NCBI GenBank assembly: GCA_013115125.1
Contig: JABANN010000036.1
Location: 1 to 64,000, forward strand
Length of the DNA stretch: 64,000 bases
Direction: 5' to 3'
Source of the DNA: Perkinsus olseni
Taxonomy: Eukaryota
The notes below the pieces were generated by a model. The model searched no databases, had not been told where the DNA came from, and was given only the letters and a program-made list of their open reading frames with translations. The position numbers and the translations under genes are program-made. Shown here piece after piece: positions 37,744 to 40,700 of the stretch (the first letter of the stretch is position 1; the number at the start of each line of letters is the position of its first letter).

Positions 37744-40700
37744 CAGTCGAACGCAAAATCACTGAATCCGATTCAGTGAATCGTCAACAGCACTCAACCT
37801 TCGCACAACGAGCATCCTATGAAAGGACTTATCTGCGCTCAGGCGACACTTCGAGAACCGTATAGTGTTGAAACTTCCCGTATATTGCCGCGGTTGCAGA
37901 TCAACCGTTTCTACGGTTGCGACATCGGGCATCCGAAAATGAGAAAGTAATACGATAAGTAATGGGTATATGAGGCTGACTTTTTCGGATATGATATGGC
38001 GGATATCATCACTGATGAATCATCAGTGATGATTCATCAGTGGCGGTTTGTACTACGAACTTTGTAGCCAGATTAGGGCAAACACCAAAGACTTCAACGG
38101 CAACACTTATACGAGAGTACCACAGACGAGACGAGACATGCACATTCCAGTGCCCGAAAATGTCTTACCAGCACGAAGGTGGATGAAATGGCTGATTCGT
38201 CCGGTGCTGAGGACTACGGAATTCCATCTCGAGCCAAAATCGCACAATTCTGGATGTGCTTACGGTCAACCAACTGGGAACCGATCGTACCCGTGATGCT
38301 TGCATAGGCAGGGATGTTTCATGGAGGAGTGGGTGGTCCTGTCATAGGATTCCTATGTGGCTAGATGTACCCCTAGTAGTGGTCCGTTACTGAGTAGTCG
38401 TTTCTTTTCCGTAAGTCTCTGGTCTGCTCCGAAATGGCAAGATTGTACGTTTCTTCTCTCCCAGGTTCTGCCGAGTGAGCAAGTGCGGAAGCTCCTTTCC
38501 GCAAGTTCAGGCTCCGCGGCAGAGCTCCAGCCACTTTGAAGTTCCCACCAATGTTTGTTACTATTCGTGTCACGGACTCCGTGACTAGTTCTGCCTTACA
38601 GACTCTAAAGTCAGAGCTGTAAGTGTGGGACTCCAGTCGACCTCCGTTCAGCTTCAAGCTTCCCCAAGACTCGACGACCGTACTCTGAAGGCTAGGTTAC
38701 AAGACAGGATCGCAATTAGATGAACACTAACCGACCAATGCACTGTGACGTCGGTCTCTCTGTCCGGCTTCTCCTCGCTCGGCTCCGGAACTTCGGACCT
38801 GCGGAATTAACATTCCAGAAGCCACCGAGCCACTCTCTCAACCAAGAATGATCCTCACACCTTCGCCTCAATGGCGTTCCTGATCGCATCCGAGATCAGG
38901 TGAGCAAGGATAGGCATTTCGACTACGTCGACGACCGTGTGAGAGAACCGCTGCTGCTGTCTGGGCAGCACTGTCAACATGATTCTACTGCCCTATTGTA
39001 CGAACAGGATGTAGTCGACCAACGCATGAGTGTTGTAGCAATATCGATCCTGCTCAACCAGGAAGCACAAATACTTATGACTGCTGGTGGCGGCACAGAC
39101 CATCTATATATATTCCGCAATACCGAGGATGAACACAGCTTCACCCGAGTGCCGCTGGCTGCTGCTGCAGCAGCCCAACAGAGATAGTGTCACTGGACTA
39201 CCACTTGCGAAAAACAACTGCATCAGGCAATCGCGACTCTTTACCCAGACTCTGGGTTCAAGAACTGTGCTACAACTACCGAGGCCGTTCGACAACGGGT
39301 CATGAAGATTCGATGACCTGTAGCATCAACCGGACCAAGAATGGGTCTGCGGCAGACCGTCTGCCGAGAGCTAACTCTGGGGCGTCATCTGATGACAGTC
39401 ATCGACCATATCCTTTGGGAAAGGTGAAACGACTTGGCAGCATCGATGCTGACCTCTAATAGGGTAGTATACTCATGGGCCGATAATCGGACACTGCTTC
39501 TACCGCAGGAACGCCCACGCACGTTGGCGGAGGCTCCGCCGCGGAGCCATAGGCATGCACCAGCAACATCCGCAGGAACGGACCCGCATGCGTTGCACAT
39601 TTGTTTGCGTCCTCAATCACAGTGCTATCGCACTTCGTCTTGCCAAGGATTACAATGTCTAAGGCACTGGACCGAGCTAGCCTCAACAGCCACAACATCG
39701 GGTCGATAGTGACAGTGACAGTGTCACTGTCATGATGCTCATCAGATCACGACGTGGTCACCACGAGTTAACATCTCATCCCACCGAGATTTGATGAAGA
39801 GCTCATGAACGAATCCACTCTCATCACAGCAGCATCTACTTCGGATTCACCATTGCTGAGCACAACCGTTGACAGTCGAAGCTGGACTAAAATCTCTCCT
39901 ATCAAAGCTACTTAGTTGATTGCTGAGTCGATGGGCAAATAGATAGCCTGCTCCCCCGATTTCCAGCAAGTGTCAATGAATCGAAGCTACCACTCACTCT
40001 GGCTTTCCGATGAGAGGCAATTAGAGCACCTCTACATCATGGGGATGAGACGTTACCCAAGATATCAACACTGTGACGATCGAGGACGACGGACGATGGG
40101 GACCCTCGAGGACTTGCCGCGGTCACTGCTGAAACTCAACATATTAAATAACGCAGCTTGACAAAATCGGAGCGAAGCTGCTTCACGACATCGCCCAATT
40201 CTTCACAGCTTTACCCACGAAAAGGCCGGGTCTAGTGCGAGGTAGATGCTCCAGGACTGAGAGGGTAGAAACATCGCCAGTGATGTTTCTATCGCGTCGT
40301 ACCGTGCACTGCACGGTACGACTGCAGATCATGCATAAGTTGACTATGATTATGCAAGCTGTCAATGAGAGCTGGAAAGATCGGACTACCAGAAGTCACA
40401 TAAGGAACGTGAACATCCCGCTACGCTCAGCTGCACCCTCCTCCATGTCCTGCACCCTTCGGGGTCAGAAACTACTATGTGAACCCCGCCTGTGCTAACT
40501 CAACAGGAGCGTGCTACAAAATTCTTCGGCTGAAGCGTCGACGTGTGTTTCGTTAGACGTGTTCCGTTTCGATACTGTCATAAGTTTGAAATCATGCTGT
40601 TACCAGGCTTGCATAGAGGAGGCTGCTCGTGTCTACCGTGGCAGCGCCCACCGAAGATCTAGCTCCGGCTCATGAACCCTTATGAAGTACTCTGGTGTCC

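Follow-up and report, generated by a model that had tools for sequence, protein, structure and literature searches.

A 64,000-nt stretch of the Perkinsus olseni genome (contig JABANN010000036.1 of assembly GCA_013115125.1, positions 1 to 64,000, hereafter the window) carries a series of 22-nt motifs, here called scars, in which an 8-nt target appears in forward, inverted, and again forward orientation. At 38005-38040, a 36-nt array contains one such scar nested exactly within another. The geometry of the scars points to the excision of a cut-and-paste transposon of the hAT superfamily, an origin that we consider quite probable for the 22-nt form. The fuller reading, in which the array additionally records a second insertion and excision at the centre of an existing scar, is given a probability of roughly 45%, its main competitor being a template switch within the first scar.

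The nested array and the +14 rule

The array reads A-TCATCA-C-TGATGA-A-TCATCA-G-TGATGA-T-TCATCA-G, letter for letter as in the original prediction. The +14 rule joins the first k-1 letters of a target X, the reverse complement of X, and letters 2 to k of X, so that a target of k=8 yields 7+8+7 = 22 nt. Applying it to ATCATCAG, and then to the central 8-mer CTGATGAT of the product, gives the observed 36-mer exactly in silico, as had been proposed; CTGATGAT is itself the reverse complement of the outer target ATCATCAG. The main features of the array, its neighbour, and its paralogous site are the following (coordinates, strand, description).

38005..38040, unstranded, 36-nt array: outer scar of target ATCATCAG carrying an inner scar
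38012..38033, unstranded, inner exact 22-nt scar of 8-mer CTGATGAT, the sole exact rule 22-mer within the array
38046..38067, unstranded, neighbouring scar of GTTTGTAG with 1 mismatch, beginning 6 nt past the array
48952..48959, unstranded, paralogous unexpanded site, a single 8-mer ATAATCAG, reached by aligning the array flanks separately

The two-step decomposition is unique and can be read directly from the letters: removal of the exact inner scar leaves an exact outer scar of ATCATCAG. Because collapsing 38012-38033 leaves the outer scar intact in this way, the inner scar must be the later step. All constrained positions of the 36-mer are satisfied (28/28), which by simple arithmetic corresponds to ~4^-28 per site, or ~1e-12 per window. 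The five-core pattern with free spacers has one match in the window and none in 100 dinucleotide shuffles, and iterative collapse of scars returns this nested case and no other across the window, whether no mismatch or up to 2 are allowed. The array is composed of two overlapping perfect palindromes of 29 nt each, with a predicted fold of -12.2 kcal/mol and a 13-bp stem as single-stranded DNA. In pre-scar coordinates, the array target and the GTTTGTAG target start 13 nt apart.

Scanning the rule across the window revealed 15 exact matches at k=8 with an offset of 1 nt between arm and inverted copy, while no match was found for k=6, 7, or 9-15, nor in Markov-1 shuffles of the window. From the 14 constrained letters, ~2e-4 matches per 64 kb are expected by chance (arithmetic). 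Varying the offset over 0, 1, 2, and 3 for k=5-12 confined the enrichment to k=8 and offset 1: offsets 0 and 2 gave 0 matches in the window, and each of the four matches of at least 21 nt at offset 3 overlaps a known scar. The +14 rule is therefore real and far beyond chance. The window shows no enrichment of footprints with shorter palindromic stretches (m+n = 2-7 inverted letters); the 0/0 form seems to be in excess, which we ascribe to a period-6 tandem repeat. The original prediction had also considered that such arrays might be confined to TCA/TGA low-complexity context, with spacers departing from the complement rule; the spacers obey the complement, and the 14 exact scars other than the array all lie on unrelated 8-mers that are not of low complexity.

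In a consensus-distance scan, a further 14 sites appear at distance 1, including both halves of the 36-nt array, and 13 at distance 2, against 0.4 expected; at distance 3, there are 24 sites against 7.2 expected. As we read them, the mismatches of the distance-1 scars resemble ordinary point changes, mainly transitions. With paralogous copies and overlaps set aside, the sites at distance 2 or less form a set of 38, of which 36 fall within 32-60 kb, corresponding to ~1.3 per kb over 28 kb. The stretch from 32000 to 60000 has little Pfam-recognisable coding sequence, and the first 32 kb, with conserved genes, holds two scars only, at 12308 and 26900.

A segmental duplication within the window provides empty sites for comparison. 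Unit 1 (31100-36700) and unit 2 (40280-45230) share 87% identity, and the duplication extends to ~37.1-37.9 kb versus 47.3-48.9 kb, fading to ~70-75% identity. Three exact scars in unit 1 or its extension can be set against their paralogues.

32429..32450, unstranded, exact scar of GAGGTCTC, GAGGTCT-GAGACCTC-AGGTCTC (rule scan and paralogue empty site)
37147..37168, unstranded, exact scar of ATCGTACA (rule scan; the paralogue at ~47.4 kb is consistent with a single copy)
37762..37783, unstranded, exact scar of CTGAATCG (rule scan; 14-nt gap versus unit 2)

That a scar amounts to a +14 insertion is best demonstrated by the one at 32429: its paralogue carries a single GAGGTCTC at ~41566-41573, the alignment has a clean 14-nt gap, and the 12 flanking nucleotides on each side are identical. 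Among the 20 indels of at least 4 nt that separate the two units, no other is a scar, and the large unit-1 insertions (142-190 nt) show no duplication or inverted ends within the flanks given. For the array, the two flanks were aligned separately to unit 2 (left p=0.02, right p=0.17), and the alignments overlap and lie in the right order. Both reach the single ATAATCAG at 48952-48959, in line with the single unit predicted near 48950, with a flank identity of ~70% that makes this empty site less clean than that of scar 32429. Degraded scars are common to both copies of the duplication at 36482-36503/45013-45034 and at 39745-39766/49737-49758. Judging from these shared pairs together with scar 32429, which is present in unit 1 only and postdates the duplication, scar formation both predates and postdates the duplication.

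Two further observations concern the duplicated region. Contigs of three sequencing runs (X2, X4, and X7) connect 47513 to 37205 with 9 other letters in between, a possible sign that another paralogue or haplotype arrangement exists. A 15-nt direct tandem duplication, TGTCGTGCATACGAA, at 35859-35873 in unit 1 is absent from unit 2 (44405) and is also an inserted variant in the X2 and X4 contigs.

Probable excision of a hAT-type element

Three features of the scars match those of hAT excision. The unit is an 8-bp target-site duplication, with 15 matches at k=8 and 0 at 6, 7, and 9-15; the palindromic additions are centred on the complement of the element-adjacent base, offset 1 alone being enriched; and the scar is inserted relative to a single-8-mer empty site, at 32429 and, with weaker flanks, at the array. 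Hermes generates 8-bp duplications (PMC10368747, partial text), and in hAT footprints the added palindromes have at their centre the complement of the base that adjoined the element (PMC5873905, partial text). We thus regard the 22-nt motifs as hAT-like excision footprints with good, if incomplete, confidence.

The steps of excision can be derived from the geometry of the scars combined with the published chemistry of hAT elements. An element of hAT type would create an 8-bp target duplication, X...X, on insertion. At excision, each flank would be sealed as a hairpin, with the complement of the element-touching base at the apex. Written out by hand, the left hairpin would read x1..x7-c8-c7..c1 and the top strand of the right hairpin c8..c1-x2..x8. 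If the hairpins were nicked 3' of the apex, at a distance of 8 nt or more, two 3' tails carrying revcomp(X) and X would remain, and these would anneal across 8 nt before trimming of the flaps, giving 7+8+7 nt and a net gain of 14. Since annealing would take place over exactly 8 nt, the length of the scar would be fixed even though the position of the nick is free.

Compared with the hAT superfamily (Ac/Ds, Hermes, Tol2), the scars are alike in the 8-bp target unit, in both palindromes being centred on the complement of the element-adjoining base, and in the logic of flank hairpins and microhomology end joining, as far as the partial texts of PMC5873905 and PMC10368747 describe them. They differ in that published hAT footprints are heterogeneous and mostly short, whereas here the full 8-nt inverted-target form alone is detectable, and occurs at ~1.3 per kb over 28 kb without a remaining element in the window. 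For RAG and Transib, the nick is placed at the border, and the duplications of Transib are 5 bp long; offset-0 forms of the Transib/RAG type at k=5-12 have 0 matches in the window. V(D)J coding joints and Transib/RAG are otherwise alike in their sealed flank hairpins, the off-apex opening of which leads to palindromic additions (PMC5499845, partial text). According to the same partial text, Mutator-like elements (MULEs) also combine 8-10-bp duplications with a flank hairpin; that of the MULE Muta1 holds 43+43 nt, which, from the gel sizes given, would correspond to no offset, and its excision in yeast is mostly precise. The Mutator-like footprint X+revcomp(X)+X was tried and rejected, with 0 matches for k=8, 9, and 10 at offset 0.

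Two routes to the second step

In the re-insertion reading, the first cycle would consist of an element entering ATCATCAG and leaving ATCATCA-CTGATGAT-TCATCAG. In the second cycle, an element of the same kind would insert into the central CTGATGAT, which is the one perfect copy of the old target, and would exit likewise. The array has the form expected from such a history: the rule holds for the inner unit, on an 8-mer belonging to the outer scar, and once this unit is removed the outer scar is exact. The symmetrised targets of the scar family have T or G at position 2 in 71% and A or C at position 7 in 71%, within a weak logo of ~0.1 bit per position (roughly n-K-C-n-n-G-M-n). ATCATCAG and its complement carry the commonest letters of this logo, T at position 2 and A at position 7. 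Also in favour of re-insertion, the neighbourhood of the array was hit again 13 nt away (scar 38046), and the family left ~38 or more scars in 28 kb.

Closely spaced hits are also recorded by a compound scar.

51126..51162, unstranded, compound scar: overlapping scars of GGCAAGGA and GCTAGGAC, 1 mismatch each (consensus-distance scan)

The targets GGCAAGGA and GCTAGGAC are offset by 1 nt in the original sequence. An A-to-T change is common to the third arm of the first scar and every arm of the second, and therefore fixes the order of both events. Two pairs of hits within 1 nt of each other have p=0.002-0.011 under uniform insertion.

Several observations weigh against the account of hAT-like excision followed by re-insertion. 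No element with inverted ends and an 8-bp duplication was found in the window (12-nt ends, up to 2 mismatches, 24-8000 nt long), and Pfam detected no transposase domain in its 174 stop-to-stop open reading frames (ORFs) of at least 90 aa; the 14 inverted-repeat pairs of the window include nothing element-like, and Rfam gave no match in it. We infer the transposon itself, as well as the repair route, from the scars. The Hermes preference nTnnnnAn, which defines Hermes and hobo and not the superfamily, is fully satisfied by 6/38 targets. An exact re-hit has p=0.023-0.051 under uniform insertion, and, the target logo being weak, sequence preference alone does not predict it. The sole fully nested scar occupies one of ~15 registers, the one that a template switch also makes. 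Fine-scale clustering of the scars is weak without the array, with 2 gaps of 13 nt or less against ~0.7 expected (arithmetic). Finally, no 22-nt intermediate or occupied allele is seen at the array in the contigs of runs X2 and X4.

These two runs, from two studies, each provide one 3521-nt contig that is identical to the window over 36741-40261 and has the same 36-mer; the depth at the array is this one contig in each, with no second haplotype among the contigs. The divergent run X7 and the RNA-like run X9 do not cover 37317-39984. In the metagenomes of the Joint Genome Institute (JGI), a flank pattern allowing 8-36 nt between the array flanks matched 0 loci. Elsewhere in the window, X7 contigs have gap totals of 14-39 nt among the indels listed, for example 14 gaps over 52277-53979, and these gaps could be empty sites.

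The most serious alternative, which we regard as quite possible, retains a 22-nt excision scar of ATCATCAG as the first step and attributes the second +14 to a transposase-free template switch between the inverted 7-mers of the scar. A strand copied through scar position 14 would pair over 7 nt with positions 16-22 of the same-sense strand, 14 nt would be copied back, and a return would follow via another 6-7 nt match. Such an event might belong to a subsequent round of replication or, alternatively, to the error-prone fill-in that accompanied the first repair. In this second case it corresponds to the iterated hairpinning of the original prediction, a single-repair-event route that requires a filled-in tail plus a switch and is treated here as part of this alternative. 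In silico, the switch produces the observed 36-mer, and its product equals that of the nested rule for 1000/1000 random 8-mers. When 5727 inverted-copy insertions were tried, 7 reproduced the array, all of them representing the same event. A switch would account for the exact central register of the sole fully nested scar and requires no improbable re-hit (p=0.02-0.05); its substrate would be the 7-nt inverted repeats of the scar, which are separated by 1 nt, and its product forms a strong hairpin in the predicted fold.

Known quasi-palindrome template switches and, at larger scale, inverted triplications are alike in a forward-inverted-forward structure extended via short inverted homology. 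Here, too, the product corresponds to the opposite arm copied between stretches of inverted microhomology, which bears on the compatibility of a switch and not on its occurrence. In most known quasi-palindrome cases, an imperfect palindrome is made perfect or the event spans kilobases; here, a transposon scar would serve as the substrate and would be lengthened by a full 14-nt unit. No independent sign of switching or slippage is seen at the other ~37 scars of the window, where the distance-1 mismatches have the look of point changes, no other array alternates forward and inverted cores five times, and no direct-slippage product is present. The compound scar at 51126-51162, with targets 1 nt apart, cannot be produced by a template switch. 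As the new strand could fold on itself only around a loop of 1 nt, a cross-strand switch would probably be required. The 1-nt offset of the inner scar was rejected as proof of a transposase: the in silico template switch inherits this geometry from the outer scar.

Re-insertion is thus slightly favoured over a template switch, and it is with this preference that we infer a transposition as the second step; both routes yield the exact 36-mer, and the sequence cannot separate them. Of the mechanisms named in the original prediction, re-insertion and iterated hairpinning, both are compatible with the sequence, which picks neither, and the template-switch route had been overlooked. Its suggestion that scars act as hotspots draws weak statistical support from the exact re-hit (p ~0.02-0.05), and near-identical re-hits do occur, as at 51126-51162.

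A process other than transposition with the same fixed 8-nt, 1-nt-offset geometry, such as a host nuclease making hairpinned breaks, with the array resulting from two hits, would fit the lack of a transposon or transposase in the window and a target logo unlike the Hermes preference. We consider it very improbable, as the motif would require two copies of the 8-mer before hairpinning, which integration provides and a simple break does not, and as the geometry agrees point for point with published hAT footprints (PMC5873905, partial text). Replication slippage in TCA/TGA low complexity, with a coincidental fit to the rule, is close to refuted: Tandem Repeats Finder reports a 14-nt period at 38005-38042 (ATCATCAGTGATGA, 2.7 copies, 91% matches) and the core (TCA)2 equals its own reverse complement at 4/6 positions, but the 2/36 positions that deviate from a 14-nt tandem array are both exactly the letters of the complement rule, 0 exact tandem duplications convert a single scar to the array (the best leaves 1 mismatch and the direct-slippage product 2), and 14 other exact scars lie on unrelated 8-mers.

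Other scars, genomic setting, and implications

The remaining exact scars of the window, all from the rule scan, are listed here by coordinates, strand, and target.

12308..12329, unstranded, exact scar of ATGCAGGT, the sole exact scar in the first 32 kb
39344..39365, unstranded, exact scar of GGTCTGCC
39526..39547, unstranded, exact scar of GGCGGAGC
45407..45428, unstranded, exact scar of CTTACAGC
46585..46606, unstranded, exact scar of AGCACAGC
48705..48726, unstranded, exact scar of CAACAGCC
52061..52082, unstranded, exact scar of GAGGTGAT
54616..54637, unstranded, exact scar of AGCACGGA
56758..56779, unstranded, exact scar of CACTCACC
57933..57954, unstranded, exact scar of CTCAGGAA
59559..59580, unstranded, exact scar of GACGTACA

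The scar at 12308 is directly followed by TGCAAT (12308-12335), which extends a further palindrome, ATTGCA-GGT-TGCAAT. Within 51065-51093, a scar of CGAACGAC carrying 1 mismatch precedes a fourth inverted arm, TCGATTC, which is imperfect; this may be a partial array that has decayed or a quasi-palindrome older than the scar. A tandem array at 51332-51509, with a 25-nt unit, ~7 copies, and a 50-nt higher-order period, lies ~170 nt from the compound scar. Two scars with 1 mismatch each, 53509-53530 and 55191-55212, are located inside contigs of the RNA-like run X9 (53283-53926 and 54803-55422, respectively) and are therefore transcribed; the latter falls within an open frame of 202 aa (minus strand). 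The X9 contigs also contain CT..AC joints in the interval 50.3-56.2 kb, with lengths of 43-154 nt and, in one case, 1554 nt; these represent spliced transcripts of the minus strand.

Genes in the window include uroporphyrinogen decarboxylase (13.1-14.1 kb) and acetyl-CoA carboxylase (15.8-21.3 kb). A Perkinsus olseni protein in NCBI shares 99% identity with the ORF at 59814-60665 (minus strand). A mitochondrial-carrier domain and a PHD finger are encoded within 58311-60665 (minus strand); both are present in the 99%-identical database protein and, by this comparison, appear to belong to one gene.

As far as the literature searched extends, hAT-like excision footprints are of a known kind, while the uniform 7+8+7 form, its density free of elements, and the nested +28 form are undescribed. 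This search, whose coverage excluded subscription journals, returned no nested form, no Perkinsus scars, and no genome-wide stereotyped footprint.

Excision footprints are usually too short and varied to be recognised without an empty-site reference, and the excision history of cut-and-paste elements is therefore invisible in genomes. The stereotyped footprint described here can be counted de novo, which would allow estimates of transposition traffic, target choice, local hopping, and the repair of hairpinned breaks in a poorly studied alveolate lineage. A bolder proposal, which we hold to be unlikely, is that the scars are not inert: the forward-inverted-forward triplet would seed its own growth, either by recalling the transposase to its centre or by self-expansion through template switching, and the scars would form a readable fossil record of cut-and-paste transposition. 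If this were true, palindrome arms would grow from 7 to 14 to 21 nt, the fossil record would amount to ~1.3 per kb here with no element remaining, and the scars would report a regime of hairpin opening and microhomology repair particular to Perkinsozoa. The nested scar is the first case on which to test whether the element re-uses its scars or these grow alone; both outcomes would reveal a way in which short perfect palindromes come about and become longer in a genome.

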